Below, one piece after another: positions 3,955 through 27,436 of a stretch of 64,000 bases of DNA. Position numbers and translations under genes: made by a program. The notes beneath the pieces were generated by a model that was not told where the DNA came from, searched no databases, and was given only the letters and a program-made list of their open reading frames with translations. Positions within the stretch are counted from its first letter, which is position 1, and every line of letters begins with the position of its first letter. Where the stretch lies: NCBI GenBank assembly GCA_964460615.1, contig CAYWPX010000009.1, forward strand, positions 19,509 through 83,508, given 5' to 3'. Origin of the DNA: an uncultured Planctomycetia bacterium (lineage in GTDB: Bacteria > Omnitrophota > Gorgyraeia > CAYWPX01).

Positions 3955-3955
3955 G

Positions 3956-4675: not shown

Positions 4676-4742
4676 ATAACAAATCAACCTGACCAGCTCA
4701 TAGTTTAACCAATAATGTATGCGCATGTAATTAAGGCATTAA

Positions 4743-4925: not shown

Positions 4926-5010
4926 TTTTCCACCTTTCGGTTTTATAGTTTAAGTATACACTAATTTCTTAGAAAATACACCTAAATTTATACTAATTTC
5001 AAAATTTAGC

Positions 5011-5644: not shown

Positions 5645-5690
5645 CAAAAAAAATGGCGCTAGTAAGCAATATCATTGCATACAAGCGCCA
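5645..5690 (-). terminator. rho-independent terminator after ORF 5709-6380
   Basis: GC stem tggcgc...gcgcca with nested hairpin, followed on the minus strand by T9. Confidence 0.7.
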
Positions 5691-5708
5691 CTTTGTATTA
5701 ACTTTAAA

Positions 5709-6380: not shown

Positions 6381-6515
6381 TTACGCCTCCTTTGTTTTTA
6401 TTAATATATAAAGACTCATAGTATTCCCGTAGTTCCTAACAGAGTAGTTTACATTAGCATTATTTTAATGTCAAGAATTTATAATTTCAGATATAAAATT
6501 GTCATCTCAAAATCC

Positions 6516-6893
6516 TTATTCCCTGATCTCTTCAATTCTAACTTTTATAATGCCGGATTCTAGATCGGCAATTTGTGAAAATGCTGCTTTGCTAAGATCG
6601 ATTATTATACCTTTTTTATAAATGTGGCTCGCTGGGCCGAAATTATTATGCCTTACCACGACGCATTTGTTATTTTCGATATTACAGACTTTATATGATT
6701 TACCGAAATCGGTCTTACGCATTGCGCATGTAAGATCAAGTTCGTTAAATTTCTCCCCTGAAGCCGTTGATGTAGCTGTATACCAGGAAGCCATCCCTGC
6801 TTTGGGATAAGCTCCGGGAAAAGATGTGCTATTTAAACATCCGGAAATGCCTAAAAGATAAACCATAAATAAATTAAATACAATCTTATTCAT
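6516..6893 (-). CDS. rlpA: RlpA-like lipoprotein (double-psi beta-barrel domain)
   Basis: 125 aa. Lipobox LGISGC, and GMASWYTATSTASGEKF...VVVRHNNFGP...IDLSKAAFSQI, matching the RlpA DPBB signature. Confidence 0.7.
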   Translation of the reverse strand: MNKIVFNLFMVYLLGISGCLNSTSFPGAYPKAGMASWYTATSTASGEKFNELDLTCAMRKTDFGKSYKVCNIENNKCVVVRHNNFGPASHIYKKGIIIDLSKAAFSQIADLESGIIKVRIEEIRE

Positions 6894-6909
6894 TAAATTT
6901 TTACAAAAA

Positions 6910-7278
6910 TTATCCGATAAATTTTTTTATTTTAGCTATCAGGTCTTCTGCTTTAAACGGTTTTATCACACAATCGTCCGCGCACATATTCTTAGATTTT
7001 TCGGAAAGCATAAGACTGGAAATATTTGCAGTAAAAAAAATTATCGGTATGGGTTTAAACTTAACGTTACTCTTTAGTATTTTACAAAGCTCTTCACCTT
7101 GCATCCCCGGAAGCCGCAAATCCAATAATATCAGATCAGGCGGGGTTTTTTCTATCAAAGCCAATCCGTCTTCAGCAGTACCTGCCGATATGACTTTGTA
7201 ACCTAATCTTTCCAATCTTACGGTCACAATGATGCACATGTCCGGTTCATCGTCTATAATAAGAATATTTTTCGCCAT
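6910..7278 (-). CDS. single-domain response regulator (REC only)
   Basis: Start taken at MAKNILIIDDEPD (ATG rc 7276-7278) directly after the HK stop. DD...D(LILLD)...T...KPF receiver motifs. The longer ORF-track version overlaps the kinase. Confidence 0.8.
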   Translation of the reverse strand: MAKNILIIDDEPDMCIIVTVRLERLGYKVISAGTAEDGLALIEKTPPDLILLDLRLPGMQGEELCKILKSNVKFKPIPIIFFTANISSLMLSEKSKNMCADDCVIKPFKAEDLIAKIKKFIG

Positions 7279-7279
7279 T

Positions 7280-8725: not shown

Positions 8726-8755
8726 AACACACCTCTTTCATACGCAAATGATAGT

Positions 8756-8787
8756 TCTAAAAAGAAAACCCCATGCATTACCATGGG
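8756..8787 (-). terminator. hairpin ccccatg/catgggg followed by a T-tract on the minus strand
   Basis: Seen in sequence between the GIY-YIG gene and the HK gene. Confidence 0.45.
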
Positions 8788-8964
8788 GCAACGAAAATAT
8801 TCATCCTCATTCTTAAATAGAAGCCAGATAATTTTATCCTTAAGGAGTTCATAGGCTTATATCATTCTTTTTCAAGCTAATTGCTGCGTAGGAAAATAGG
8901 AGGAAAATAGGGACAGCGACCGTTAATTTTAAATTAAATTAGGCGAGACCCCTTTTTCCTTCAA

Positions 8965-9219
8965 TTAGGCTAATTGTGGACTAAAAAACTTTTCTTTAAT
9001 TCTCCGTCGCCCTGTAGTTGATTTGTAAAATTTTTCCTTCTGTCTAGCTTCCTTAAGCGTTTCGAACTCTTCTGTATGTATTATGTTATACGGTCGATAT
9101 GGGCGTGACGCTTTGACTCTCCCGGCATTATGCAACGCTAATCGCTTATTCACATCATCGGCAACGCCGGTATACGTTCTCGTTTTCCTTTCATTGAGCA
9201 AGATATAGACATAATGCAT
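8965..9219 (-). CDS. GIY-YIG nuclease superfamily protein (UPF0213/YhbQ-like)
   Basis: 84 aa from MHYVYILLNERKTRTYTGVADDVNKRLALHNAG...EEFETLKEA, matching the YhbQ/YazA family. The longer ORF-track version (to 9345) overlaps tRNA-Ser and is rejected. Confidence 0.75.
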   Translation of the reverse strand: MHYVYILLNERKTRTYTGVADDVNKRLALHNAGRVKASRPYRPYNIIHTEEFETLKEARQKEKFYKSTTGRRRIKEKFFSPQLA

Positions 9220-9300
9220 ATCTGTTTCTGTATGGCGGATCCGCCTCGCCAGCTTCGCTGGCAGGCGAGATTTCGCCATCTCGCCAACTTTGTTGGCGGA

Positions 9301-9390
9301 TGGCGGAGAGGGAGAGATTCGAACTCTCGGTACCTTGCGGTACACGCGCTCTCCAAGCGCGCGCCATAAACCGGACTAGGCGACCTCTCC
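9301..9390 (-). tRNA. tRNA-Ser (anticodon GGA), long variable arm, encoded CCA
   Basis: rc reads GGAGAGGTCGCCTAGTCCGGTTTATGGCGCGCGCTTGGAGAGCGCGTGTACCGCAAGGTACCGAGAGTTCGAATCTCTCCCTCTCCGCCA. Anticodon stem CGCGC/GCGCG, loop TTGGAGA. Confidence 0.75.
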
Positions 9391-9858
9391 TAGAAAATTG
9401 TGAAGCAATTTTCACTCTGAATTTTGACGAGAAAAATATCGAAGAAATTTTTCCGTCGTTATAAATTCAGAGTAATTCATAAAATTTCGTTGCATCTCGC
9501 CAAATTTTTGCTCTGGCGCAAAAATAATTAAATTTCATTCGTTATGGCGGCGCCGCTTGCTCCCTGCTCGGCTTGTTAAACTCAAAAGTCTTTTATCAAA
9601 TGAAATCCCGCGTTAGCGGGGTCTCCTCGCCACGGTCGCCAGCGGCATCTCGCCAAATTTTTGCTCTGGCGCAAAAATTTGGCGGAAGGTGAAGGATTCG
9701 AACCCTCGAAGGGATTACTCCCTTAACGGTTTTCAAGACCGCCGCATTCAACCGCTCTGCCAACCTTCCTAGAAATTGTGAAACAATTTCACTCTGAATT
9801 TTGACAAGAAAAATATCGAAGAGATTTTTCTGTCGGTTTAAATTCAGAGTTACCTTAT
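9391..9858. repeat. Tandemly duplicated tRNA-Ser unit: ~90-bp upstream segment with 11-bp inverted repeats (actctgaattt...aaattcagagt) + tRNA + downstream 13-bp-stem palindrome gccaaatttttgc-tctggc-gcaaaaatttggc
   Basis: 9391-9480 ~ 9770-9858 (~85% identity). gcatctcgccaaatttttgctctggcgcaaaaat occurs at 9493-9527 and 9648-9682. A degenerate version lies at 9270-9300. Confidence 0.8.
9680..9769 (-). tRNA. tRNA-Ser (anticodon TGA), encoded CCA
   Basis: rc reads GGAAGGTTGGCAGAGCGGTTGAATGCGGCGGTCTTGAAAACCGTTAAGGGAGTAATCCCTTCGAGGGTTCGAATCCTTCACCTTCCGCCA. Closely resembles canonical bacterial tRNA-Ser(UGA). Confidence 0.85.
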
Positions 9859-10066
9859 AATAAACTATTTTGCGGCTCCGCCGCATTTCCCTGACTCGCT
9901 TCGCTCGCTCCATGGGCGCCTCGCTAACGCTTCGGTAGCAACCGCCCCCTGCATTTTTCTTTCGCAAACCATGCGAAATAAAATAACCGCAGGGGCTCCG
10001 CTTCGCTTCGTCTGCCATTTCCCTATTTGCAAAAGTGTTTTATTATAACCTTAATGCCCTATTATG

Positions 10067-10738
10067 TCAACTGAGCGAAAGAAATTGATTAACAACCAGG
10101 ACATAAATATCTTTAGTCCTAGTATAAGAGTCCACCATAAAATCCTGGAAATTAAAACCATTAAATAGGAGACTTATTAAAAATCCCGTAATTGCCACAT
10201 TTACGGTAACCACAAGAACTGTCGCCAAAACCTGCCCCATACTTACAAGATCAGGCTGCTCAACCTTTAAAGTATCTATTGTCATAACCAGATGCATAGC
10301 AAACGTAAATCCCAACAGTCCCATAAAGATCGTAAGAATGCCGTCTAAGTTAAAAGAGGATATTAAAACAAAATATATTATTGCAAGTATTATAGGGATT
10401 ACCGGAATAAAATAAGGGCTGGTAGAAATAAACAGATTGTTCTTGGTGCCTGTAACGCTACCTCCCTTTTTAGTTACTTTAAACTTCTTCACCTTCCCCA
10501 GGCACAACCATATGGAAATAGCATGCACCAGCTCATGCCCGAATACATACAAATAGGTCGGTTTAAATAAAAATAAGTGCACGATGACATACAATACGAT
10601 ACCTAGGAAAAAAACCCTCTGCCCGGTGCTGTTAAAATCGGTGATATTATTGATCTGATAGATAAAAGCAACTGAGATACCCACGGCTATGGGTATTGCA
10701 ATGATCCCTATGAATAATTTTATAAATTTTCCGAACAT
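10067..10738 (-). CDS. polytopic membrane protein with HExxH motif (putative membrane zinc metalloprotease, DUF3267-like)
   Basis: 223 aa. ~6 hydrophobic segments, and HELVHA at the start of a TM helix. Confidence 0.45.
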   Translation of the reverse strand: MFGKFIKLFIGIIAIPIAVGISVAFIYQINNITDFNSTGQRVFFLGIVLYVIVHLFLFKPTYLYVFGHELVHAISIWLCLGKVKKFKVTKKGGSVTGTKNNLFISTSPYFIPVIPIILAIIYFVLISSFNLDGILTIFMGLLGFTFAMHLVMTIDTLKVEQPDLVSMGQVLATVLVVTVNVAITGFLISLLFNGFNFQDFMVDSYTRTKDIYVLVVNQFLSLS

Positions 10739-12022
10739 TTAAGGCGTTATCTTTTCCTTGCCGTCAAAATACTTCCGAAGCGCTTCCGGGATAGCAATAG
10801 ATCCGTCGATCTGTTGGTAATTTTCCATTATCGCTATCACCAGCCTCGCTAACGCCACTCCGGAAGCATTGAGCGTATGGACATATTCGGTTTTAGGTTT
10901 ACGGTTTTCGGTTTTGGATCTGAATCTAATATTAGCGCGCCTTGCCTGAAAATCTTCAAAGTTTGAACAACTCGAAACTTCCAAATTCATCTGGCTCCCT
11001 GGAGCCCATAACTCCAAGTCATAACATTTCGCAGCTGAAAACCCTATCCCTTGGGTGGAAAGGAGCACCACCCTATACGGAAGATTTAATAACTGTAAAA
11101 CTTTCTCAGCATTTTGTAATAGTTTCTCATGTTCATCATAAGACGTTTCGGGCTTTACAAATTTCACAAGCTCAATCTTATCAAACTGATGAACTCTCGT
11201 CATTCCTCTTGTCTCTTTACCGTAAGAACCGGCTTCTCTTCTGAAGCAGGCCGAATAGGCAGTATAGTAAATGGGTAGCTTTTCTTCATCGAGTATCTCA
11301 TCCCTAAAAATATTTGTTATGGGTACTTCGGCGGTAGGGATCAAAAATAAGTCGTCATATTTAAGGGTATACATATCTTCTTCAAATTTTGGCAGTTGGC
11401 CTGTACCTATCATACTGTTTCTATTTACCAAAAATGGAGGGAAAATTTCCGTATAACCATGCTCAGTTGTATGCAGATCAAGCATGAAGTTAATTAGCGC
11501 CCTTTCCAGCCTTGCTCCCATCCCTTTAAAAAGAATAAAGCTTGATGCAGTTATTTTGGTCGCTCTGGGAAAGTCAATAATATCCAATAACTCAGCTAGC
11601 TCCGTATGCGTCCTAGGCTTAAAGTCAAACTCCCTATGTTTTCCCCATTCCTTAACTACTTTGTTTGCTTCATGTTCTGAACCAATTGGCACAGATGAAT
11701 GCGGAATATTTGGGATAGTATATACAATATTAGCAATATTTTGGTCTAATTCCCCCACTCTTTTATCTAAAATCTCAATATTTTGGGATATCATTTTTAG
11801 ACCTTCTATCTTATCCTTAGCGTTGACCTTTTGAGCCATTAAACGGCCTATCTCTTCACTGGCCTTATTCTTTTGGCTCTTAAGGCTCTCGACCTCGGTT
11901 ACAATTTTACGCCTCTCTGAATCTAAGGATAAAAGCTCATCCAGATCCATTGTATAGTTTCTATTCTTAAGCGCCTCTTTTACTTTATCCGGATTTTCCC
12001 TAATAAATTTTATGTCTAACAT
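10739..12022 (-). CDS. serS: seryl-tRNA synthetase
   Basis: 427 aa. N-terminal coiled-coil arm, class II motifs 2 and 3 (FRRE..., GSGLA-like), full-length SerRS similarity. Confidence 0.95.
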   Translation of the reverse strand: MLDIKFIRENPDKVKEALKNRNYTMDLDELLSLDSERRKIVTEVESLKSQKNKASEEIGRLMAQKVNAKDKIEGLKMISQNIEILDKRVGELDQNIANIVYTIPNIPHSSVPIGSEHEANKVVKEWGKHREFDFKPRTHTELAELLDIIDFPRATKITASSFILFKGMGARLERALINFMLDLHTTEHGYTEIFPPFLVNRNSMIGTGQLPKFEEDMYTLKYDDLFLIPTAEVPITNIFRDEILDEEKLPIYYTAYSACFRREAGSYGKETRGMTRVHQFDKIELVKFVKPETSYDEHEKLLQNAEKVLQLLNLPYRVVLLSTQGIGFSAAKCYDLELWAPGSQMNLEVSSCSNFEDFQARRANIRFRSKTENRKPKTEYVHTLNASGVALARLVIAIMENYQQIDGSIAIPEALRKYFDGKEKITP

Positions 12023-12162
12023 TTACGATCCCCTTTTCAATCTGTACTGCGTCTTGAGTAGAGAGTACTGCGGTATATGCGCAATACACCGTACGCCGTA
12101 CGAAATACTATCCTTTAATCACACCTATTGCCTACCGCCTTTGGCGATACGGCCTGAAGCTA

Positions 12163-13626
12163 TCAACCCTTTATAACTCCTATTGGTCGCATCTTGCAGA
12201 CTCTTTTTGCGAGACCCGCCTCATGGACTACATTAACAACATCATTTACATCTTTATATGCTTCAGGCGCTTCTTCTAGTAATGTTTCTCTGCCTGTAGA
12301 TTTGACTATTATACCTTTATTTTCCAATTCGCGCGAGAGATTTCTTCCTTTTAGACTTCTGATCGCAGCACCCCTCGAAAGCATCCGTCCGGCACCATGA
12401 CAAGTAGAACCAAAGGTTTCATCTTCAGCCTTTTTTGTTCCGACTAATAAATACGAATTTCTACCCATATCTCCCGGTATTATAACCGGTTGGCCTATGG
12501 TTTTGTATTTAAGGGGAATATCAGGATGATTTGGCCCAAAGGACCTCGTCGCACCTTTTCTATGAACACATAATAATTTTTCTTTACCATTTATATTATA
12601 TTTTTCTAATTTAGCAATATTATGAGCAACATCATAAATAAGGTCCATACCAAGATCTCTGGAAGATTTTTTGAAAACTTTTTCAAATACATTTCGCGCT
12701 ATATGCATAAGGCACTGCCTATTGGCCCAGGCATAATTAGCTGCGCATCTCATAGCTCCCAGATATTTCTTTCCTTCCGGTGAATTCACCGGAACTGAGG
12801 CAAGCTGCCTATCGGGAACTTGAATATTGTACTTAGATAGTAAATGGATCATATCTTTAGCATATTCATCGCATATCTGATACCCCAACCCCCTTGAGCC
12901 TGAGTGGATCATTAGAACAACACTTCCGACTTCAATACCAAACACCTTGGCTGCAATTTTATCGAAAATTTCATCAACTACCTGCACTTCCATAAAATGG
13001 TTTCCCGAACCAAGAGTCCCTGACTGGTTCTTTCCTCTTTCGTAGGCTCTATCTGAAACTGCGGACGGATCCGCCCCTTCAATAAATCCGCCCGATTCGG
13101 TATATTCTATATCTTCTTTCCTTCCATAGCCTTTTTTCTCTATAACCCACCTTGAACCCTTTAAAAGAAGCTCCCTTTCTTCGAGCGCAGAGATCCTTAC
13201 ATCTCCTTTAGATCCAACGCCTGCAGGTACGTCGTTAAAAAGCGCATACACCAGATCCTTTAGAACCGGCCTGATATCATCTTCAAACAAATTTGTCCTA
13301 ACTAACCTTACCCCACAATTTATATCATAGCCCACTCCGCCGGGCGAAACTACTCCGCCGTTTTCTATATCTGTTGCAGCGACGCCTCCTATAGGAAAAC
13401 CATACCCCCAATGAATATCAGGCATAGCCAAAGAAGCGTTTACTATTCCGGGCAAAGTGGCTACATTTGCAACCTGCTCCATAGCCTTATCTTTAAAGAT
13501 ATCCTTGAGCATTCCTTCACTTGAATAGATAATACCCGGTACCCGCATGCCTTCTTTATAAGATTTTGGTATACGCCATCTGTAGTCGTCAATCTTTTCT
13601 ATGGGTATGTTTATTGTATCTGGCAT
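12163..13626 (-). CDS. rtcB: RNA-splicing ligase RtcB (3'-phosphate/5'-OH RNA ligase)
   Basis: 487 aa. GGVGYDINCGVR, HSGSRGLG, HNIA and CVHRKGATR motifs. Confidence 0.95.
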   Translation of the reverse strand: MPDTINIPIEKIDDYRWRIPKSYKEGMRVPGIIYSSEGMLKDIFKDKAMEQVANVATLPGIVNASLAMPDIHWGYGFPIGGVAATDIENGGVVSPGGVGYDINCGVRLVRTNLFEDDIRPVLKDLVYALFNDVPAGVGSKGDVRISALEERELLLKGSRWVIEKKGYGRKEDIEYTESGGFIEGADPSAVSDRAYERGKNQSGTLGSGNHFMEVQVVDEIFDKIAAKVFGIEVGSVVLMIHSGSRGLGYQICDEYAKDMIHLLSKYNIQVPDRQLASVPVNSPEGKKYLGAMRCAANYAWANRQCLMHIARNVFEKVFKKSSRDLGMDLIYDVAHNIAKLEKYNINGKEKLLCVHRKGATRSFGPNHPDIPLKYKTIGQPVIIPGDMGRNSYLLVGTKKAEDETFGSTCHGAGRMLSRGAAIRSLKGRNLSRELENKGIIVKSTGRETLLEEAPEAYKDVNDVVNVVHEAGLAKRVCKMRPIGVIKG

Positions 13627-13727
13627 TTTTAAATTCCTTTAGCTATAAGGCAATTAGATAATTGAGTGATTGGTTTAATTTTTTACCTAATCGCATTATA
13701 ACCTAATCACTATTTTTTATATACGAG

Positions 13728-14144
13728 CTACACATCAAAAATAATCTCTGCGCTATACATATCACCGGCCTTTGTTATCTTAAAATCGTGATATGTCACG
13801 CCCTTGACTTCGGCTTTAAGCACATGCCTTCTCTTATCAAAATCGTCACCAACAATTTCGGCAACGATCTCGCAATCAGCCAGTTTTTTTATTTTAATTT
13901 TTTTAATAAGAAATTCTCTGGAGGTATAAAAATAAAGGAGCTCGCTTAAAAAATTTATAAGCAGCTCCTCCAAGTTCGGGGCCTTGATAGAAACTTCTTT
14001 TTTCAAGGCCCCTTTAATTTTTTTTGTATCACTAAGAACATCAAATAAAGCTAAAGCCGAATTAGTAAAAAGCGTTTTAAGGGTTTTCCCATGCGCTCTT
14101 ACGCCTATGTCTGCAGTATGATCAAAATACTCAAAGCGCTTCAT
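13728..14144 (-). CDS. archease (RtcB activator)
   Basis: 138 aa. Signature FEYFDHTADIGVRAHG at the N-terminus; located immediately upstream of rtcB. Confidence 0.85.
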   Translation of the reverse strand: MKRFEYFDHTADIGVRAHGKTLKTLFTNSALALFDVLSDTKKIKGALKKEVSIKAPNLEELLINFLSELLYFYTSREFLIKKIKIKKLADCEIVAEIVGDDFDKRRHVLKAEVKGVTYHDFKITKAGDMYSAEIIFDV

Positions 14145-17876: not shown

Positions 17877-18595
17877 TATTTAAATATTTTACAGTGGACC
17901 GACATGCCAAACTTAAAATATTTATTAAAATCATCTGATGCATCAAGCGGGAATATCCTGACTTTAAAAACTTTCTCCGGTAAATAATAGTACCTTGAAA
18001 ACATTTTGGGCATTTGATCTATCTCGGCATAAACAAACTCTATCTTACCCTTAATTTTTTTGTCTTTAATGCTCGACCAGACCTCGGCCTCCTGCCCCAC
18101 TCTCACGTTATTGATAAAGCGAGCAGGAACAAATGCATCTATCCAATACCGTTTGGGTTTTGTAACACTATAAATCACATCTCCTTTGTTAACTATATCC
18201 CCAACGGATTTATTTTTTTTGACTATCACCATTTCATAGCTTGCCCTTATGTCTTTGGATAATCCTCCGGCTTCGTCAGAAGCTTTGATGAGAGCAATCG
18301 TACTCCCCTCTTCAACCCTTGCGCCTGTTTCAGCATAAAGCTGGCTTATCTTTCCGTCTATAGGGGAAGTAATGCTAGATAGATCCATATTCTCCATTTC
18401 TAGCTGCATTGGACCCATTACTACACCATTAACAAATAAAGTATCCAATGTCAAAAACCTCCAAACAACAAATGGTGTAGCTAAAAATATTATAAAGAAT
18501 ACAAACTTGACTATTTTCGGCAGACCCTTCTTAGGGCTTTGACGTTCGGCTTGAGCCTTATTTACAGTAAACGCCTCTATCTTTCTTAGTCTCAT
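17876..18595 (-). CDS. HlyD-like periplasmic adaptor / membrane-fusion protein (short form)
   Basis: 239 aa. N-terminal TM anchor, biotin-lipoyl-like SPIDGKISQLYAETGARVEEG and a beta-barrel domain. 1-nt overlap with the GT2 gene. Confidence 0.55.
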   Translation of the reverse strand: MRLRKIEAFTVNKAQAERQSPKKGLPKIVKFVFFIIFLATPFVVWRFLTLDTLFVNGVVMGPMQLEMENMDLSSITSPIDGKISQLYAETGARVEEGSTIALIKASDEAGGLSKDIRASYEMVIVKKNKSVGDIVNKGDVIYSVTKPKRYWIDAFVPARFINNVRVGQEAEVWSSIKDKKIKGKIEFVYAEIDQMPKMFSRYYYLPEKVFKVRIFPLDASDDFNKYFKFGMSVHCKIFK

Positions 18596-20049
18596 ATAGT
18601 TTTCCCTGACATATTAATTAGTTTATTTAATAGCTCTTCATCAGTTCTGCCATCCTCAGGGTAAGAAACTGACGATACTTTAACGTTAATATGCTCCCTA
18701 CTGGTATACTCATTAAGCTTTTTATTTATAAAACGTTCCAGCTCCAGGGCCTTAGATTTATCGGCCTCCGGAAGAAGAGTAATTAAAGCGCTCTTGTCGT
18801 AACGGGCGTGTATGTTTATTTTCCAGAGATTCTCCTTTAGAAGGGTCGCTATGTCATTAAGCATCCTCCTGGCTCCACTAAAACCGGCCTTTTTGGTCAA
18901 TTCATCAAAATTGAGGACATTCACCATAACAATGGAAAAATGCTCTTTGAATTTTTCAGCACGGTCTAACTCCTCATCAAGTCTTTTCTTAAAATACCGG
19001 TTACTATATACCTCAACATCAGTATCAAGCAGTATCTGGTCCATGTTCAAATCTATAAATCTCCCCGACTCTACAACACCAGCCGCATCTTCGGTAATAG
19101 GATATTTAAATATATCCTGCCTCATAGCATTATCGATCTCAAATATTTTTTTGCAATTCCTGCATTGAGCGCTTACATCCGGTTCGGTGAACTTTTCTCC
19201 GTTATCATTACATACGAAACTTTGCCCCGGCTTATCATAATCCACCCCTATCTGCTTTAATTCATGCTCGCATTTTGGGCAGATGTACTGCGTCCCCTTT
19301 TTAAATTCTTCTTCAATGCCGGTATAGCCGCACCTGAAATGGTGGATCATTTCAACTATTGATATATTTGCGCTATGGGTAGTCGGACACGTCTCTCTGA
19401 TATTTATATCGTGATGCATGCAATATGGGCATAGAAGGACCCTGTCAAAAAATCTTTTTTCAAAACACCCTTTATTAACCAAAAATTCGATATGATCTAT
19501 TTCGCTTCCGTCATTGACTTTAAAAAAATTTGCGGCAATTGGATAGCCATAACCGCTCAGGGAATTCATATTATATTCCGGGATCAATTCCTTAATGTTA
19601 TTATCCAGCATACTTTTCAGGAAATCCACTCTCAACTTGTCTTCTTTGGATATGACCGGAGGTTGAGTGGTTTTTTTAGCCCTCCTCAAAACAACTTCTA
19701 TCCTGGCTATAAGCTCCTGGGCATCATAGGGTTTGGTTATGTAATCATCTATACCGAATTTAAAAAATTTTACCTTATCTTCCATACCGGATCTCGCGGT
19801 AAGGGCAATGGCAGGAATAGCTGATTTTTTGGCATCGGCATGCAACTTCTGAAGGACTTCAAATCCATCCATCCCGGGCATCATAATATCAAGGAGTATC
19901 AAATCCGGAGTATTGGTATCCGTATAGAGCAGAGCTTCTTTGCCGCTTAAAACACTATGAACATTGAACCCCGCGTTTTCCAATCTCATAGTTAAAAGCC
20001 GGCTAACATCCGGTTCATCATCTACAATAAGAATATTCCCTTTTGCCAT
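18592..20049 (-). CDS. response regulator: REC + Cys-rich (zinc-ribbon-like) middle domain + degenerate GGDEF domain
   Basis: 485 aa. REC motifs (VDDE, LILLDIMMPGMDG, ALTA, KPY). CPYC..C..C..CPKC..C..CRNC cluster. C-terminal GGDEF fold with RYDKSAL replacing RYGGDEF and no RxxD I-site. Confidence 0.75.
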   Translation of the reverse strand: MAKGNILIVDDEPDVSRLLTMRLENAGFNVHSVLSGKEALLYTDTNTPDLILLDIMMPGMDGFEVLQKLHADAKKSAIPAIALTARSGMEDKVKFFKFGIDDYITKPYDAQELIARIEVVLRRAKKTTQPPVISKEDKLRVDFLKSMLDNNIKELIPEYNMNSLSGYGYPIAANFFKVNDGSEIDHIEFLVNKGCFEKRFFDRVLLCPYCMHHDINIRETCPTTHSANISIVEMIHHFRCGYTGIEEEFKKGTQYICPKCEHELKQIGVDYDKPGQSFVCNDNGEKFTEPDVSAQCRNCKKIFEIDNAMRQDIFKYPITEDAAGVVESGRFIDLNMDQILLDTDVEVYSNRYFKKRLDEELDRAEKFKEHFSIVMVNVLNFDELTKKAGFSGARRMLNDIATLLKENLWKINIHARYDKSALITLLPEADKSKALELERFINKKLNEYTSREHINVKVSSVSYPEDGRTDEELLNKLINMSGKTI

Positions 20050-20070
20050 ATTTTTATCCTCTGGTAAATG

Positions 20071-21456
20071 CTATTGTTTTATATTTAATTCTTCCGGATG
20101 GTTTGTATAATATTTTTTCATTTTAATCAAAATATCATCCATTGAAGTGGAAGGTATAAAATTTAAAATTCTTTCAAGCTTCCTCAGATCAGGAATGCGC
20201 TTTCTTATATCCTCAAAATTGGTCCCATAATATTTTTCGTAATCTTCAAATTTTATTTGCGAAGAACTTCCGGTAATATTTATTATACGCTGGGCAAGGT
20301 CACTTATGGTTATATTATTATTACTTCCGAGATTTATCAGCTGACCGTTTGCATCTTTGGAATTAGCAAGTCTTATGATTATCTCTACGGCGTCTTCAAC
20401 ATATGTAAAACACCTGGACTGTTTCCCGTCCCCGTAAATAACAAGCGGTTTATTATTAAAGGCGTTATAAAAGAATCTCGGTATAACCATTCCAAAATTC
20501 CCGACCTGACCCGGGCCTACTATATTAAAAAGCCTTACCACAACAACCGGGAGATTCCTTTCCTTATGATACGCTATCGTGAGAAATTCATCAAGTAATT
20601 TTGAACAAGCATAGCTCCACCTGTTAACATCAGGGGGCCCGATAACGACATCATTATCCTCTCTAAAAGGAAGCTGGTCGGATTTGCCGTAGACTTCGGA
20701 GGTTGAGGTGAGAAAAACCTTGATATGTTTTTGTGAAGCATATTTCAGGACTAACTCAGTCCCGTAAGTATCATTTATTATGGTATCAAGAGGCCTGTCG
20801 ACAACATTTTTAACTCCTACCGTAGCCGCTAAGTGATATATCATATCGACTTTATCTATCAGTTTACTTATAAGCGCTTCATCAGTAACAGATCCTCTCG
20901 TTAAATTAAAATTTTTTAAACCTGCCATATCCTCAATATTTTTTTCTCTGCCCGTAGAAAAATCATCTAATACATAGACGTTATATTTCATTTTTACAAG
21001 CACCCTTGCCAAATGCGAGCCTATAAAACCGGCCCCACCGGTAACAAGAATATTATTAATGGTATTTTTGGCGGCATCCTTTGACCTTCGTAAGACTGCA
21101 TTAACTCTGCTTATGAATTCCTCTGCCTCAAATGGCTTTGTTATATAATCATCCGCTCCCAGATCAAGGCATTTAACCATGTTTGACGACGATTGATCCG
21201 CCGTAAGCATTATAACCGGGATAAAAGCGGTTTTTCTATCAGAGCGGATCTTTGCCAATAGAGTATACCCGTCCATATCAGGCATCTCGATATCCATAAT
21301 GATAATATCGGGGATCTCTTTTTTTAAATATTCCAGGGCATCAATCCCGCTTGCGACTGCGGAAGCAATAAAGCCGGATTTATTTAAGCGCGGCAGAAGC
21401 ACCTTGCCGACTTCCCTTTCATCATCGATTATTAATACTTTTGGTACTGGCGACAT
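20071..21456 (-). CDS. REC domain fused to NAD-dependent sugar-nucleotide epimerase/dehydratase (extended SDR, UDP-glucuronate decarboxylase/UXS-like)
   Basis: 461 aa. N-terminal REC (IDDE, IIIMDIEMPDMDG, MLTA, KPF), then VTGGAGFIGSH Rossmann, catalytic SxS...YACSK (YxxxK). Confidence 0.85.
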   Translation of the reverse strand: MSPVPKVLIIDDEREVGKVLLPRLNKSGFIASAVASGIDALEYLKKEIPDIIIMDIEMPDMDGYTLLAKIRSDRKTAFIPVIMLTADQSSSNMVKCLDLGADDYITKPFEAEEFISRVNAVLRRSKDAAKNTINNILVTGGAGFIGSHLARVLVKMKYNVYVLDDFSTGREKNIEDMAGLKNFNLTRGSVTDEALISKLIDKVDMIYHLAATVGVKNVVDRPLDTIINDTYGTELVLKYASQKHIKVFLTSTSEVYGKSDQLPFREDNDVVIGPPDVNRWSYACSKLLDEFLTIAYHKERNLPVVVVRLFNIVGPGQVGNFGMVIPRFFYNAFNNKPLVIYGDGKQSRCFTYVEDAVEIIIRLANSKDANGQLINLGSNNNITISDLAQRIINITGSSSQIKFEDYEKYYGTNFEDIRKRIPDLRKLERILNFIPSTSMDDILIKMKKYYTNHPEELNIKQ

Positions 21457-21461
21457 ACGTC

Positions 21462-22802
21462 CTATCTCCTATTCTTTCTATCCAGGATGATCCTTCTGAT
21501 TTCAGCCCTGATCTTATCCGGATCGTGACGGACTACTTCTGTTTCATTTGCTATATCGGCTATAACAATACGAGCTTTAGTAATTTTTTTGATTTCGTTG
21601 ATATCATTAATAAAGACGGGGAATTGATTTTTTTTGGAATATTTTTTTACTGAACTCTTGGATAATTTATTTGTATCGTTTATTAATATATAATCCAAGC
21701 TATCCGATTTAAGATATTTTATAATTTCGCTGATATGATTAGCCGCATCAAACCCGTAAGTTTCACCCGGTTTTGTCATAAGATTGCATATATACACCTT
21801 AACTGCGGGCGAATCTATTATAGCATCTCTTATGGCTTTAACTAATAAATTTGTTATAATACTGGTAAACAGATCTCCCGGGCCGATTGTAACCATATCA
21901 GAATTAATGATCGACGAACAAGCGCCTGTATCGGCTTTCGAAGGAGGCTCGTGCCAGCAATCGATGATCTTCAGGGATTTGTCCCGCCCAACCCCAAGAT
22001 CAATATTGCTTTCGCCTTTAATAACTTTACCATTTTCAAATTTTGCACATAAGGTAGGATTTGTTATTGTGGCAGGATTTACTATCCCTTTAATATTAAG
22101 TATGTCGCCCATGGCCCTGACCGCTTCAGGCATCGAGCCGGTAATATCGGATAAGGCAGTGATAAGCAAATTACCTAAGCTATGACCGCTAAGGCCCGGG
22201 GCCTTTTTAAATCTGTACTGCATTACTTTATCCATTAGATCCGGAGTGGTGGATAGAGCGACCAGATTCCTTCTTATGTCTCCCGCCGGGATCCCGCCAA
22301 AAGCCGCCTTAAGCCTTCCCGACGAACCGCCATCATCACTGGTGCTTACTATGGAGGTCAAAAATACATCATCGAGTTCCTTTAACCCCATTAAGAGATT
22401 AAATAATCCCGTCCCTCCCCCAATAGATGAGACCCTGTACTTTTTTTCAAATACTGCTTTGACTTTTAATAGGATCTCCCTGTGGTTAAAAGGCTTGGAC
22501 AAAAAGTCCTTGGAGCCGTATTTTTGAAAATCAAAGACATCCTCCAGGCTTTCGGAGAGAGAAGAAATAAAAAAAGGGATTTTAGAAACTTCAACAATAT
22601 TAAGGTTTTTTTGGAATAATACAGGATTGCTTTTGTAGGAATCTTTATCAAATACTATAATGTCCGGCGAGAAATCGATCAATGCAGATTTCAAAGTTTC
22701 GAAATCAAATACTCTTTTAACCTCTAAAACAAGTTTTGATAGAAAAGGCTTGATATCTTCTACAAACTTATCGTTTCCAATCAATAAAAATCTTTTATTC
22801 AT
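21462..22802 (-). CDS. REC-like receiver domain fused to YvcK/CofD-like (UPF0052) domain
   Basis: 446 aa. N-terminal ~125 aa with receiver pattern (LIGND, IIVFDKD, FFISS, SKPF), then IGGGTGLFNLL, DDGGSSGRL and PAGDIRRNLVALS motifs of the YvcK family. Confidence 0.75.
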   Translation of the reverse strand: MNKRFLLIGNDKFVEDIKPFLSKLVLEVKRVFDFETLKSALIDFSPDIIVFDKDSYKSNPVLFQKNLNIVEVSKIPFFISSLSESLEDVFDFQKYGSKDFLSKPFNHREILLKVKAVFEKKYRVSSIGGGTGLFNLLMGLKELDDVFLTSIVSTSDDGGSSGRLKAAFGGIPAGDIRRNLVALSTTPDLMDKVMQYRFKKAPGLSGHSLGNLLITALSDITGSMPEAVRAMGDILNIKGIVNPATITNPTLCAKFENGKVIKGESNIDLGVGRDKSLKIIDCWHEPPSKADTGACSSIINSDMVTIGPGDLFTSIITNLLVKAIRDAIIDSPAVKVYICNLMTKPGETYGFDAANHISEIIKYLKSDSLDYILINDTNKLSKSSVKKYSKKNQFPVFINDINEIKKITKARIVIADIANETEVVRHDPDKIRAEIRRIILDRKNRR

Positions 22803-22871
22803 TAAGATTTTTCCTATGAAAATTGTTGTGTAGATGATTGGAGCAAATTTTGCAACTTTTAATCAGATTGA

Positions 22872-22900
22872 AATATTTGCTTTAAGTATTTATCTGTCAA
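22872..22900 (-). promoter_or_regulatory. candidate promoter (TTGACA-17-AATATT) upstream of the REC-fusion operon
   Basis: rc of 22895-22900 = TTGACA; -10-like AATATT at 22872-22877; ~70 nt upstream of the ATG at 22802. Weak -10. Confidence 0.3.
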
Positions 22901-23079
22901 ACAATTATATCATAGGGCATTGATATTTCAATATAAATATAAATGGCCAATAATGACACAAGCTGTAGCTATTTCAATGCATTCAAATGACCCATTTCGG
23001 TCTAAAAACAAAAAAATATGGCAAAGATGCATAGAAGCAAACAAATACTTTTCTTCCAAAATCTTTGCCATTAAAGCTC

Positions 23080-23190
23080 TTATTTTTTACAGACACATTC
23101 ACTCGCTTTCTTTTTGCATCCGCTGCAAACCCCTTTTTCGATTGGCTTGCCACAATTCTTACACGGTGTACACCCGCAAACTTCGCACAT
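23080..23190 (-). CDS. small Cys-rich peptide (36 aa, 11 Cys), metallothionein-like or precursor-peptide-like
   Basis: MCEVCGCTPCKNCGKPIEKGVCSGCKKKASECVCKK. GGGGGTGA Shine-Dalgarno 6 nt upstream. TATAAT-like -10 ~70 nt upstream. Not in the ORF track (<60 aa). Confidence 0.4.
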   Translation of the reverse strand: MCEVCGCTPCKNCGKPIEKGVCSGCKKKASECVCKK

Positions 23191-23411
23191 GTTAATCACC
23201 CCCGCTCTAAGATCTTTCTATATGGAATTGCCAAAAAAATGTTAAAAATTAATATTAATTATACAGCATATTAAAAAAAAGAAAATTGGCAGATTCTATT
23301 ACTATTTGACTTTTTTCTACCTATAGATAATTTAGAATGTTTTGCATATGCTCTTAATAGGGGTAAGCACATATTCTTAAGATATTGTAAAATTCCATAA
23401 TTTTAGAATCC

Positions 23412-23965
23412 AAAATTAAGAAATTTTAGCAACAATCGCATGGACAAAAAATAAACCTCTTATTTTTTTAAGAGGTTTTAATTGAATTTTGCCCCTCGTT
23501 TTGCCTAAATTGCTTCTTCTCGACGCAATTTACGGCAACTCGGGATTGGTGAGCCGCCCGTGACTCTCCCGACGCAATCCTTTGGATAGGTCGGGATTCC
23601 GACTTACCTGTTTTATGGGTAACGTCGGAAGAACACGGCGTATCTACCAATGAATAAAATTGAAAGACTGAGAGGGTATATGTCCATGCGCTTAAAATAG
23701 TACTAAAATTCCTTAATTTTCAAGAACACAAAATTAAGAAATTTTAGTATTAATCGCATGGACAAAAAATAAACCTCTTATTTTTTTAAGAGGTTTTAAT
23801 TGAATTTTGCCCCTCGTTTTGCCTAAATTGCTTCTTCTCGACGCAATTTACGGCAACTCGGGATTGGTGAGCCGCCCGTGACTCTCCCGACGCAATCCTT
23901 TGGATAGGTCGGGATTCCGACTTACCTGTTTTATGGGTAACGTCGGAAGAACACGGTGTATTTGG
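23412..23965. repeat. Two ~232-bp direct repeats (23412-23643 and 23731-23960, period ~319 bp). Each contains a bidirectional terminator hairpin and the 3'-terminal 20 nt of tRNA-Lys(TTT).
   Basis: Near-identical blocks. tggtgagccgcccgtgactc at 23548-23566 and 23865-23884 equals the tRNA 3' end at 24143-24162. ORFs 23468-23650 and 23786-24001 lie inside the repeats and are likely spurious. Confidence 0.85.
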
Positions 23966-24103
23966 TATTAACGGTATCGGGATTGGGGGGCTATTACGCA
24001 CATGCTCTTAAAGAGAAATGCCGATATTCTTAAGATATTGTAAAAATTCCTTAATTTTAATTACAAAATTAAGGAATTTTTACAATAAGAATATGGACCA
24101 AAA

Positions 24104-24142
24104 TAAAAAATCATTCTTAATTTTAAGAATGATTTTTTATTT
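24104..24142. terminator. bidirectional rho-independent terminator abutting the tRNA-Lys(TTT) 3' end
   Basis: aaaaaatcattcttaa-tttt-aagaatgatttttt: perfect 11-bp stem flanked by A- and T-tracts. Confidence 0.7.
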
Positions 24143-24218
24143 TGGTGAGCCGCCCGTGACTCGAACACGGCACAACCACATTAAAAGTGTGGTGCTCTAC
24201 CTGATGAGCTAGCGGCCC
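24143..24218 (-). tRNA. tRNA-Lys (anticodon TTT), encoded CCA
   Basis: rc reads GGGCCGCTAGCTCATCAGGTAGAGCACCACACTTTTAATGTGGTTGTGCCGTGTTCGAGTCACGGGCGGCTCACCA. Anticodon loop CTTTTAA. Confidence 0.85.
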
Positions 24219-24566
24219 ACGTTAAACTTAAATCTAAATTTCAATACTAGGCAATCTGACTGATGTCGCTTTGTTGATGTCCCAAAAAACTTAAGTTTTT
24301 TGGGATGAATTAGCTCTTGATCCTTAAAAACTCGTTTTTCTGCCTGCTGCCTTAGGGCAGTCAGGCAGTAATCATGATCTAATTCTACGGCCCACGTTAA
24401 ACTTAAATCTAAATTTCAATACTAGGCAATCTGACTGATGTCGCTTTGTTGATGTCCCAAAAAACTTAAGTTTTTTGGGATGAATTAGCTCTTGATCCTT
24501 AAAAACTCGTTTTTCTGCCTGCTGCCTTAGGGCAGTCAGGCAGTAATCATGATCTAATTCTACGGC
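24216..24566. repeat. Tandem 175-bp repeat x2 (+ partial third) between frr and tRNA-Lys(TTT). Each unit carries a perfect 24-bp palindrome cccaaaaaacttaagttttttggg and an imperfect GC hairpin ctgcctgctgcc-ttag-ggcagtcaggcag.
   Basis: Units 24216-24390 and 24391-24565 are near-identical; the unit boundary includes the first nt of the tRNA 5' end (cggccc). Confidence 0.85.
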
Positions 24567-24588
24567 CCCCTTTAATTCAAAATCTAAA

Positions 24589-25149
24589 CTATATCGCTGT
24601 TAGTTCTTTTTCTTTTGCAGCTAAAACCTGATCAACTTCTTTTATAGTCTTATCTGTAAGCTTCTGGATATCGTCCTGACCCTTGAAGCTGTCATCTTCT
24701 GTGATGAGGTGGTCTTTTTCACCTTTTTTAATATGTTCATTTGCATCGCGTCTGATCGCCCTAAGAGAAACCCTGGCGTCTTCTGCCAGTTTCTTAACAA
24801 CCTTTGTAAGTTCTTCGCGCCTTTCCTGTGTAAGCTGTGGTATTGAGATCCTTACAACTTTGCCATCATTGATTGGATTAGCTCCGAGATCTGATTTCTG
24901 GATAGCTTTTTCAATCTCTCCTAAAGCATTCAAGTCCCAAGGCTGAATGACAATAAGTTTCGGATCGGGAGCAGAAATATTGCCAAGCTGCTTTATCGGA
25001 GTCATAGTCCCGTAATAATCGACCTTTATGCTTTCAACTAAAGATGCCGACGCCCGGCCGGTACGAACAGTAGATAGATCCCTGTGTAATACTTCCATGG
25101 TCTTTTTCATCTTCATTTCTGTATCGTGGATAATATCTTTTACCGACAT
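24589..25149 (-). CDS. frr: ribosome recycling factor
   Basis: 186 aa, full-length RRF similarity. Confidence 0.95.
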   Translation of the reverse strand: MSVKDIIHDTEMKMKKTMEVLHRDLSTVRTGRASASLVESIKVDYYGTMTPIKQLGNISAPDPKLIVIQPWDLNALGEIEKAIQKSDLGANPINDGKVVRISIPQLTQERREELTKVVKKLAEDARVSLRAIRRDANEHIKKGEKDHLITEDDSFKGQDDIQKLTDKTIKEVDQVLAAKEKELTAI

Positions 25150-25151
25150 AT

Positions 25152-25868
25152 TTACCCCCTCACAAGAGTTCCAATTTTTTCACCGGTTAAAACTTTTTTG
25201 ATATTTCCGTGCTTTGTCAAATTAAACACTATTAACGGCAACCCGTTATCCATACAGAGGCTTATAGCAGTTGAATCCATAACCTTTAAGCCTTTTTTGA
25301 GTACGTCTATATATTTAACCTCTTTAAAAAATTTCGCATTTTTATATTTCATAGGATCCTGTGAGTAAACACCGTCAACCTTTGTCGCTTTAAGTATTAC
25401 ATCGGCATTAATCTCAACAGCCCTTAAAACTGCCGTAGTGTCAGTAGTAAAATAAGGATTGCCTGTTCCGGCTACAAAGATCACTATCCTTCTTTTTTCT
25501 AAATGTCTGATAGCTCTCCGCCTAATATACGGCTCGGCGACCTGCTGAATATTTATTGCAGTCATTACTCTGGTATACGTCCCAAGCTTTTCCAATGAAT
25601 CCTGCAGAGCCAATCCGTTTACAACCGTAGCAAGCATACCCATATAATCCGCAGTAGAACGGTCTATACCGAGCTTTTCAAGTGTTGCGCCTCTGACTAT
25701 ATTGCCGCCGCCAATAACAACCGCAACCTGAATACCAAGGTCATGGACCTCTTTGATCTGCTTACAAATAGAATTAACTGTTTTGGGATCAATTCCGTAA
25801 CCAAGATTTCCCTGGAGGGCTTCACCACTGAGTTTTATTACGATTCTTTTATATGCAGCTTTTGCCAT
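25152..25868 (-). CDS. pyrH: UMP kinase
   Basis: 238 aa. KLSGEAL and GGGNIVRG motifs. Confidence 0.95.
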
Positions 25869-25935
25869 TGATTGTAGCTCATAGTTCAGAGCTCATGGCT
25901 CATAGAAAAATCTACAAGCCATTAGCTTAAGTTTT

Positions 25936-26538
25936 TTATTCGCCTAATTGGAATCTTACAAATCTCTTTATCAGGATATTCTCGCCGATCTTACCTACTA
26001 AGACGCTCAAAAGATCCTTTATTTTAATTGCCTGATCTTTAATAAAAGGCTGCTCTAATAAACAAACCTCTTCATAATATTTTGATAATCTTCCCTGAAC
26101 GATCTTCTCTACAACTGCATCGGGCTTGCCTTTTGCTGCGCCTTCTTTGGCCTGAACCGTCAAGATCTCGATTTCCCGATCAATAGAAGCCTGAGGGACC
26201 TCATCCTTTTTGACATAAAGAGGATTTGCTGCGGCAACCTGCATAGCTACATCTTTGACAAATCTCTTAAAGTCCTCATTTTTTGCAACAAAATCCGTTT
26301 CGCAGTTAACTTCAACCAATACGCCTATTTTCCCGCCAAGGTGTATATAGCTTTCGATTACACCCTGCTTTGCTTCTCGGGTGGCTTTCTTTTCGGCTTT
26401 AGCTGCGCCTTTTTTTCTTAGTATCTCAATAGCCTTCTCTTCATTGCCGCCTGCTTCTTTAAGGGCTTCCTTGCAATCCATCATTCCGGCGCCCGTTCTT
26501 TCTCTTAATTGTTTAACTAAATTTGCATCTATATTCAT
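25936..26538 (-). CDS. tsf: elongation factor Ts
   Basis: 200 aa. LRERTGAGMMDCKEAL signature. Confidence 0.95.
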   Translation of the reverse strand: MNIDANLVKQLRERTGAGMMDCKEALKEAGGNEEKAIEILRKKGAAKAEKKATREAKQGVIESYIHLGGKIGVLVEVNCETDFVAKNEDFKRFVKDVAMQVAAANPLYVKKDEVPQASIDREIEILTVQAKEGAAKGKPDAVVEKIVQGRLSKYYEEVCLLEQPFIKDQAIKIKDLLSVLVGKIGENILIKRFVRFQLGE

Positions 26539-26542
26539 TTTA

Positions 26543-27436
26543 TTACCTCTTTTTAGTTTTTCTGTCCTTTAAAGAAGAATCTGCGGCAGTCTTGACCTTT
26601 TTCTTGCCTTTACCTATCTTCTCCACACCTTCACCTTCGGTCAAATCTGCCCCGATAAGCTTTTCAACAATGGTCTCATCAACATTAATATGAGATTCCT
26701 CTTCCATATCTTTATCTGATTCGATCTGCTCTGAAGACTTAGCAAAGTTGGTTCTGCCTTCCAGTACAGAATCGCTGATCAAAGAAGTGATAAGCTTTAT
26801 TGATTTGATAGCATCATCATTACCCGGTATAGGATAATCAATTATGTCCGGGTCGCTATTGGTATCAACCAGCGCAACTACAGGTATGCCAAGTTTTTTG
26901 GCTTCTTTTACAGCAATCTCTTCATTTTTAGCATCAATTATGAATATAGCGGATGGGAGAGTGGCTATATTCTTAACGCCTTCAAGATTTTTCTTAAGTT
27001 TATTGAGTTCCTTATTTAGCTGGGATTCTTCTTTTTTGGAATAAAGCTTGATTGAACCGTCTTCCTTCATCCCCTCAATTTCCTTCATTCTTTTGATGCT
27101 CTTTCTCACCGTCTGGAAATTAGTTAAAAGGCCTCCGAGCCATCTCTGGTTTACATAGAACATGTTGCATTTCATGGCTTCGGTCTTGATTATTTCCTGA
27201 GACTGTCTTTTGGTGCCTACAAAAAGGATATTGCCGCCTTTACTAGCGACATCCTTTAGAAAATTGCAAGCTTTCATAAGAAGCCCTGTTGTCTTCTGAA
27301 GATCTACTATATATATCCCATTTCGTTCCCCGAAAATGTATGGCTTCATCTTGGGATTCCATTTCTTTGTCTGATGACCAAAATGCACCCCTGCCTCCAG
27401 AAGTTGTTTCATTAGTTCTGTTTCCTGAATATTCAA
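26543..27436 (-). CDS. rpsB: 30S ribosomal protein S2 (with Lys/Glu-rich C-terminal extension)
   Basis: 297 aa. S2 core; the rpsB-tsf-pyrH-frr order is conserved. Confidence 0.95.

Follow-up and report, generated by a model that had tools for sequence, protein, structure and literature searches.

Why should the 3' end of an intact tRNA gene be repeated downstream of it, without the remainder of the gene? The question is raised by a 64-kb stretch of DNA (the window) from an uncultured Candidatus Omnitrophota, in which the minus strand of a housekeeping region carries rpsB, tsf, pyrH, frr, tRNA-Lys(TTT) and a stack of repeat units, in that order; the ribosome recycling factor (RRF) encoded by frr (24589-25149) has its next relatives among Omnitrophota proteins, at no more than 75% identity. 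The sequence is a metagenome-assembled genome (MAG) built from short reads, in which the copy numbers of the repeat units are uncertain. The stack of partial tRNA copies is a real and lineage-specific set of scars; such features are of a known kind, but this one is unusual in being miniature, hairpin-decorated and two-sided, a form that recurs at several tRNA genes. As to its origin we favor, with about as much confidence as reservation, the explanation that the units are non-functional scars of T-loop-directed insertion events that rebuilt the gene, followed by the insertion of hairpins and then by amplification.

Anatomy of the partial tRNA-Lys(TTT) copies

The intact gene (24143-24218, minus strand, as are all tRNA-derived features of this locus) was identified with ARAGORN and Rfam (RF00005, 59.1 bits) and encodes its CCA. 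An exact scan with the 20 nt at its 3' end, GAGTCACGGGCGGCTCACCA (tRNA positions 57-76), revealed exactly three copies in the window, all on the minus strand (23547-23566 in unit 1, 23865-23884 in unit 2, and 24143-24162), and none in shuffled sequence; only the third copy is surrounded by a full tRNA, as a sequence-only reading of this DNA had stated. The same reading described three tandem units, each ending with the 20-mer. A direct repeat of 239 nt is indeed present (23405-23643 versus 23723-23961, 97% identity, spacing 318 nt) and contains a perfect 205-nt core (23434-23638 identical to 23752-23956), but the supposed third unit, consisting of the tRNA and its flank, has in common with the others only an 85-nt AT-rich palindrome region (76% identity) and the hairpin terminator, homology between the flank of the real tRNA and the unit flanks being confined to the palindrome and terminator region at 67-76%. 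Nor do the repeats end with the 20-mer, which is internal to the repeated block, whose borders lie elsewhere; tRNA identity resumes 64 nt upstream of it.

On the tRNA strand each unit reads ATAC-(G/A)CCGTGTTC, 64 nt, GAGTCACGGGCGGCTCACCA, and the real tRNA reads GCCGTGTTC-GAGTCACGGGCGGCTCACCA without interruption. Both strands of the window (128 kb) contain the octamer CCGTGTTC at three places only, once in the tRNA and once exactly 64 nt upstream of each dead 20-mer, and its confinement to these three in-register sites shows that the dead copies span tRNA positions 48-76 and that 64 nt are inserted in them between positions 56 and 57 of the T-loop. The tRNA identity of each dead copy amounts to 29 nt, divided 9 + 20 by the clean insertion. 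Unit 2 comprises the 5' strand of the T-stem with the first three T-loop bases (ACCGTGTTC, positions 48-56 with one mismatch, 23949-23957), the hairpin-rich insert (TTCCGACG...CGTCGGGA, 23885-23948), the 20-mer and a post-CCA hairpin segment delimited by alignment and called ext (23797-23864); in unit 1 the corresponding parts are an exact copy of positions 48-56 (GCCGTGTTC, 23631-23639), an insert identical to that of unit 2 (23567-23630), the 20-mer and ext (23479-23546). The one mismatch of unit 2 aside, the tRNA fragments match their tRNA perfectly (100%), while between the flank modules beside them identity is only 67-76%, and upstream of the fragments no significant homology to tRNA positions 1-47 was found (p = 0.6 and 0.9). 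As in a duplication of an integrase attachment (att) site, the 3' part of the tRNA is repeated exactly and in the same orientation downstream of the intact gene. The intervals bounded by the 20-mers measure 278 and 318 nt.

A unique segment, P2-tail2 (P2 is one of the AT-rich palindromes described below), leads from where one core ends to where the following one begins; together with the perfect 205-nt core, this linking segment establishes a recent tandem duplication, in agreement with the earlier suggestion that the 3' flank of the tRNA had been amplified. A decayed third copy of the junction between CCA and ext lies at 23965-23991 (GCCCCCCAATCCCGATACCGTTAAT versus GCTCACCAATCCCGAGTTGCCGTAAAT), with moderate support from the repeat family and from the motif AATCCCGA, all five occurrences of which in the window fall within the tRNA-Lys(TTT) locus.

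The 64-nt insert is bounded by near-perfect terminal inverted repeats (TTCCGACG and CGTCGGGA, seven of eight positions matching) and is predicted to stack with the T-stem as one 16-bp helix enclosing three small hairpins (-30 kcal/mol, z = -5.6 for the insert; -40.7 kcal/mol, z = -4.3 for the whole fragment). Directly after CCA, ext contributes ~57 nt that are specific to the units and, by alignment, missing after the real tRNA; it folds into a strong hairpin (-22.8 kcal/mol, z = -4.3), and its first 30 nt (AATCCCGAG...ATTGCGTCGAGAAG) have a paralogue in the final 33 nt of the insert (AATCCCGAC...ATTGCGTCGGGAGAG). Beyond the two units, no copy of the insert was detected in the window (blastn-short, nhmmer) or in public collections.

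Each unit had also been credited with a promoter-like stretch and a terminator hairpin, of which the hairpins alone stand out statistically: terminator-like hairpins are enriched (9 sites versus 1.7 +/- 1.4 expected), while promoter-like hexamers, present in P2 and P3, are not above chance (11 versus 8.3 +/- 3.1). The hairpins and palindromes are given here without strand. T1 (23453-23478) and T2 (23771-23796) are identical, with a 10-bp stem, an A-tract before and a T-tract after, and T3 (24097-24146), directly after the tRNA, is a perfect hairpin with 24-nt arms (100% complementary, -25.9 kcal/mol, z = -10.6) whose stem takes in the ACCA of the tRNA and which looks like a bidirectional terminator. 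Among the palindromes, P3 (24036-24087; inverted repeat and promoter scan, z = -10.0) has perfect 23-nt arms and a promoter-like TTGTAA-18-TACAAT on the minus strand, P2 (23698-23752) has 23-nt arms that are 91% complementary and a promoter-like TTGAAA-18-TATTTT, and P1 (23383-23432), recognized from repeats and alignment, is a degenerate copy, and the tail behind it is homologous to the one after P3. Terminator activity of the hairpins and weak promoter activity of the palindromes may persist. The open reading frames (ORFs) within the repeats are probably artefacts, as had been proposed, because they have no Pfam or NCBIfam match and overlap with tRNA-derived sequence; between the repeats no supported ORF was found.

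The 5' side of the gene is likewise occupied by repeats. Two perfect 175-nt units are located at tRNA position 6/7 (24213-24562, minus strand; the period is perfect over 24213-24568), each containing two hairpins and a weak promoter-like stretch and each ending in the leader plus GGGCCG, the first six bases of the tRNA, whereby the tRNA 5' end is rebuilt. Comparison with the closest relative, L002, and with L003, a Logan contig from an independent assembly of the same sample, shows that the ancestral leader with GGGCCG is retained beside the frr stop codon (24563-24588, minus strand); it shares 77% identity with the sequence in which the 175-nt units end. In L002 (RRF 75% identical), whose contigs end inside or right after the tRNA and therefore inform on the 5' side, the tRNA starts 9 nt after the frr stop, and in a further relative, L016, it starts 12 nt after it, which marks the 175-nt units as an insertion at position 6/7 that supplied new upstream DNA. 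Each unit brings 149 nt of new DNA that are not obtainable by simple local duplication and have no donor copy in the window. The T-loop insert, the post-CCA hairpin, these 5' repeats and the involvement of three further tRNA genes are all absent from the sequence-only reading.

Fragments at other tRNA genes and at related loci

When all eight tRNAs of the window were compared with the window and their flanks were read, four of the genes were found to be accompanied by fragments. Five independent 3' fragments, four from the window and one from the tRNA-Lys(TTT) locus of a relative, L014, start at positions 48-63, in or beside the T-loop, as do att-derived copies: at 48/57 for Lys-TTT, 56 for Lys-CTT, 55/63 for Arg, 55/60 for Gln and 56 for L014.

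At tRNA-Lys(CTT) the last 21 nt are repeated ~200 nt downstream (1796-1776), directly after a CTACG...CGTAG hairpin and a GC-rich segment. At tRNA-Arg(TCG) (regions 2366-2551 and 2650-2793) an 83-nt unit that contains the last 15 nt of the gene is repeated perfectly after it, in 2.24 copies; the unit reads TCGACTC, a 26-nt hairpin, then CTGCC..., corresponding to the junction of T-loop and T-stem divided by the hairpin. Upstream of the same gene lie its first 22 nt, an 82-nt palindrome-bounded insert (CCTGCCTGCC...GGCAGGCAGG) and positions 23-34, and this 5' fragment is closed by a perfected palindrome, AGTAGGTGGCT-CTA-AGCCACCTACT, around the anticodon-like loop CTCTAAG. At tRNA-Gln (47202-47550) a copy of the first 12 nt lies 85 nt upstream, 13 nt of the T-arm recur in inverted form 17 nt downstream of the gene (47363-47375), and farther downstream (47202-47262) CGAATC, two 20-nt palindromes and the last 15 nt of the gene are found. 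An all-against-all comparison of the segments inserted at the different tRNAs detected no common family, the CCTGCCTGCC palindrome and short GC-rich motifs of the GCGAAGCGAG type being all they have in common.

A palindrome resembling repetitive extragenic palindromes (REPs), CCTGCCTGCCGGCAGGCAGG, is present within the tRNA-Gln and tRNA-Arg fragments and also in intergenic positions (52923-52942 and 60007-60026) between TATGAGC direct repeats; 15 matches with at most one mismatch were counted, versus 1.9 expected. The flanks of the tRNA-Ser genes (9391-9680 and 9770-9850) share a palindromic block of 64 nt on the upstream side, at 92% identity, as well as a repeated TTTTTGCGCCAGAGCAAAAATTTGGCGAGATGC, and the hairpin after tRNA-Ser(TGA) takes the tRNA's own GCCA into its stem, like T3 at tRNA-Lys. 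Downstream of tRNA-Ser(GGA), at a distance of 82 nt, lies an ORF for an 84-residue stand-alone GIY-YIG protein (8968-9219, minus strand), and in the interval between them the terminal TCCGCCA of the tRNA occurs three times. The protein is UPF0213-like, with PDB matches 1ywl and 1zg2, and searches of PHROG and NCBIfam gave no match. Genes for the RNA ligase RtcB, Archease and seryl-tRNA synthetase (SerRS) are clustered beside the two tRNA-Ser genes (10739-14144, minus strand), and the Archease-RtcB-SerRS trio also follows frr in one related genome.

The order frr then tRNA-Lys(TTT) is conserved across Omnitrophota and is ancestral. The comparison with related genomes that had been proposed for this locus yielded five clean sites and a single similar layout. 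Sites without fragments, and in this sense empty, are those of L005, L007, L012/L013, L016 and L017; the tRNA lies ~60-110 nt after frr in L007, L012/L013 and L017, and a run of N hides the spacer in L005. The similar layout, independent of that in the window and found in this one genome only, is that of L014 (GCA_041643075.1, JBGGHH010000301.1, 10569-11570), in which a 9-nt remnant of the tRNA 5' end (GGGCCGCTA), situated 13 nt after frr, is followed by an insertion of ~770 nt with a MazE-like ORF and a 92-residue partner ORF, then by the intact tRNA, 150 nt of GC-rich DNA, a hairpin, and CGAGTCCTGCGCGGCTCA-TCA, a 3' fragment from position 56 in which TCA replaces CCA. The loss of CCA is evidence of neutral decay of this fragment. 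Farther downstream in L014 lies a gene for a large AAA/WD40 protein.

Beyond these loci the units have no counterpart in what was searched. A scan with the 20-mer GAGTCACGGGCGGCTCACCA retrieved one Omnitrophota genome (L005), the metagenome contig L007 with its clean frr-tRNA-Lys-tRNA-Glu site, and an unrelated high-GC contig (L006) whose match is probably due to chance. The core of the 64-nt insert had no exact-pattern match in genome, metagenome and viral collections, homologues of the units were found neither in collections of genomes, metagenomes, viruses, phages and plasmids nor at the related loci, and in blastn searches of phages and plasmids the tRNA was the sole match. Rfam searches at E <= 5 over 21000-27000 and 1-10200 returned tRNAs only, other hits at the locus having E > 0.1 and lying far below the gathering threshold.

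Origin of the units

In the explanation we favor, short modules would first have been inserted into tRNA-Lys(TTT) by recombination directed at the DNA coding for the T-loop, for which a site-specific recombinase acting in trans would be the preferred agent. Every module would have brought its own tRNA 3' part, by which the gene was rebuilt, and the old 3' part (positions 48-76) with the old downstream flank would have been pushed outward as an attR-like fragment. The displaced dead copy, whose present anatomy is given above, would then have gained two hairpins: the 64-nt element, placed precisely at the 56/57 junction of the T-loop, and the related one of ~57 nt right after CCA. Finally, a 318-bp block was recently duplicated, unequal crossing-over between repeats being presumably the simplest route. 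The same kind of event would have rebuilt the 5' end, leaving the 175-nt units at position 6/7, and would have affected the three other tRNA genes of the window.

Williams is said to have recognized, in 2002, the T-loop as a classic sublocation of integrase att sites. In the logic of such sites the incoming DNA carries a replacement gene end (PMC9897764, referring to Williams 2002). Exact fragments, starts at the T-loop, new DNA in between and empty sites in relatives together fit short modules that carry a replacement gene end, and an att-like origin is plausible from these traces. The resemblance to the tRNA duplications left at attL and attR by tyrosine-integrase elements of the T-loop sublocation class, among them prophages, genomic islands and ICEs (PMC9897764), extends to the intact tRNA followed by exact copies of its 3' part in the same orientation, to blocks reaching from at or near the T-loop to CCA, to empty sites in relatives and to fragments stacked as in tandem integrations. 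Moreover, the contrast between fragments that are 100% identical to the tRNA and flanks that are 67-76% alike fits imported homeologous modules better than local copying.

Several observations weigh against this explanation. No integrase or transposase domain was found among the ~62 ORFs of the window, nor any phage domain, so that the cognate integrase whose search the sequence-only reading had recommended did not emerge; the three att-like 20/21-mers were not found in viral contigs; and the modules (83-318 nt) lack cargo genes and are far below the size of known integrative elements. The 5' fragments end variously, at positions 6, 9, 12 and 34, unlike the products of a single recombinase site. 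Three of the five 3' fragments carry a palindromic hairpin insertion in or next to the T-loop, which the favored explanation does not account for and which suggests that the hairpin is tied to fragment formation. Several tRNA ends show inverted copies and perfected palindromes, for example at the anticodon arm of Arg, at the T-arm of Gln and in T3 with its ACCA, which point to template switching over recombinase action, and the short-read origin of the MAG leaves the number of units uncertain. Of the serial integration at tRNA-Lys that had been proposed from the sequence, the T-loop starts, exact fragments and empty sites are retained, while the lack of an integrase and the gene-less intervals of only 278-318 nt are not what it would lead one to expect.

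Comparison with known systems reflects the same division. Unlike attL/attR duplications, the copies are separated by 83-318 nt rather than kilobases, with neither integrase nor cargo between them, and they include hairpin-interrupted fragments, 5'-end fragments and four of the eight tRNA genes within 64 kb. Cis-mobilizable elements (CIMEs) and accretion arrays are att-flanked, integrase-less remnants mobilized in trans, for example at streptococcal tRNA-Lys (PMC5704250), and like them the units are integrase-less segments between att-like repeats, in tandem and adjoining a tRNA gene; CIMEs, however, are kilobase-sized and lie beside a cognate integrative and conjugative or integrative and mobilizable element, and neither such an element nor an integrase is present in the window. 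With REPs and miniature inverted-repeat transposable elements (MITEs) the 64-nt insert has in common its terminal inverted repeats (7/8) and its stacked-hairpin fold, and the genome's CCTGCCTGCCGGCAGGCAGG palindrome likewise sits inside tRNA fragments, but unlike REPs and MITEs the insert has no dispersed copies in the window or the collections searched and no clear target-site duplication.

The rival that survives best, which we regard as possible though rather unlikely, dispenses with an integrase: double-strand breaks or stalled replication at tRNA genes, which form hairpins and are highly transcribed, would be repaired by microhomology-mediated template switching. The outcome would be partial duplications, both direct and inverted, together with hairpins inserted from a template and amplification in tandem. 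It draws on the perfected palindrome AGTAGGTGGCT-CTA-AGCCACCTACT that closes the 5' fragment of tRNA-Arg, on the inverted T-arm copy after tRNA-Gln, on terminator palindromes that take in the tRNA's own NCCA, on junctions at loop/stem borders (12/13, 22/23, 34/35, 56/57, 59/60, 62/63) and on the perfect tandem units of 83 and 175 nt, and it accounts for several features no less well than serial integration does. The breaks could stem from a nuclease that cuts T-loop-coding DNA, for which a precedent exists in the GIY-YIG protein SegB of phage T6, whose cuts within tRNA genes, at RAWTSGAAC, set off a tandem amplification that depends on recombination (PMC13096335). By our own reading the reverse complement of this motif corresponds to the T-loop consensus GTTCSAWTY, and as in the amplification by SegB in T-even phages, borders fall in tRNA genes, T-loop-coding DNA is the likely break point, and a GIY-YIG ORF adjoins a tRNA gene of the window, tRNA-Ser(GGA). 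In the phage, however, SegB amplifies complete tRNA genes along with its own gene, while here the amplified pieces are dead 3' fragments only and belong to a bacterial chromosome. The GIY-YIG ORF, moreover, encodes just a bare 84-residue domain of the UPF0213 type beside tRNA-Ser, 14 kb from the tRNA-Lys locus, and its link to a nuclease route is only a lead. Template switching would also have to supply new DNA that has no local donor, namely the 149 nt in each 175-nt unit, the 64-nt insert and the toxin-antitoxin-like genes of L014, and the exact fragments between diverged flanks favor imported modules over it.

That the tandem order or copy number was created by the metagenome assembler, from repeats or from strain mixtures, is in our judgment very unlikely. 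The short reads and the perfect repeats of 205, 175 and 83 nt would invite such an error, and the Logan contigs L003 and L004, independently assembled from the same sample, stop at repeat borders. These breakpoints, however, occur about one k-mer past the divergence of context, as for true repeats, and therefore fit real repeats while leaving the copy number uncertain; the 20-29-mers in common are shorter than the final assembly k-mers, and the unit-specific flanks exist as unique sequence (the tail3-fragment and P2-tail2-fragment joins, and the P1 flank in L004). A T-loop-interrupted fragment could not derive from a functional allele of any strain, and a similar layout is seen in the unrelated assembly of L014. 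Misassembly can alter the copy number, but hardly the existence of the units.

Least probable of the full explanations is that the units are small RNA genes, each transcribed from an AT-rich palindrome promoter to T1 or T2 into an RNA of ~250 nt in which the T-arm helix is extended, the 3' strand resembles that of a tRNA and ends with CCA, and one more hairpin is present; such an RNA could serve as a mimic or decoy of tRNA ends. Promoter-like hexamers upstream and strong terminators downstream of each unit, the very stable predicted folds of insert, fragment and ext, and a core perfectly kept between the two units while the flanks differ would suit such a role, but promoter-like sites are at chance level, palindromic insertions fold stably without function, Rfam gave no match even at E <= 5, no homologue in the searched collections offers covariation, the units are missing from every related genome examined, and the counterpart fragment in L014 lacks CCA. 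Nothing indicates a selected RNA product of the units.

The remaining candidates were set aside briefly. Whole decayed tRNA genes were rejected because no tRNA homology is found upstream of the fragments. A tRNA intron or split tRNA was rejected despite the presence of RtcB and Archease in the window, since there is no bulge-helix-bulge (the insert borders face each other in one continuous 16-bp helix), positions 1-47 are missing and the host is bacterial. A casposon-like 15-bp target duplication, brought to mind by the 15-nt repeats at tRNA-Arg and tRNA-Gln, was rejected for want of terminal inverted repeats and Cas1 and because the other repeats measure 20-21 nt; a retroelement primer-binding site on the plus strand was dismissed, as the copies are plainly local duplicates.

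Neighboring genes and meaning for Omnitrophota

A small Cys-rich ORF immediately downstream of unit 1 (MCEVCGCTPCKNCGKPIEKGVCSGCKKKASECVCKK, 23080-23199, minus strand) is preceded by a good Shine-Dalgarno sequence and an extended -10 box and has no match in Pfam or NCBIfam. After the units, this ORF is followed by a response-regulator/CofD-like gene and more envelope genes. The gene run at 18592-22802 (minus strand) encodes N-terminal response-regulator receiver domains fused to unusual outputs, among them a CofD/YvcK-like domain, an NAD-dependent epimerase, and TackOD1 plus GGDEF.

Site-specific recombinases are reported to be common in the hypervariable loci of Omnitrophota (bioRxiv 10.64898/2026.06.07.730766), which speaks for the favored explanation. 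A bolder generalization of the favored explanation, which we consider unlikely but worth stating, is that these bacteria harbor miniature (about 60-320 bp), hairpin-rich, gene-less modules that home to T-loop position 56/57 and to the first 6-12 bases of tRNA genes, carry the displaced gene end, stack as scars and are mobilized in trans by a putative T-loop-directed recombinase or nuclease; the 64-nt insert would then be one such module caught in a dead copy.

The interest of the locus is modest unless a dedicated T-loop-directed mechanism is demonstrated. If the units are ordinary scars, they mark the tRNA-Lys(TTT) gene after frr as a hotspot of insertion in Omnitrophota, account for assemblies breaking at this point and warn annotators of spurious ORFs in the units. 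If the pattern, in which small modules rebuild both sides of the gene, fragments start at the T-loop and hairpins fall exactly within it, is general, it would point to a tRNA-gene-directed process, of insertion or of break repair, in this uncultured phylum.

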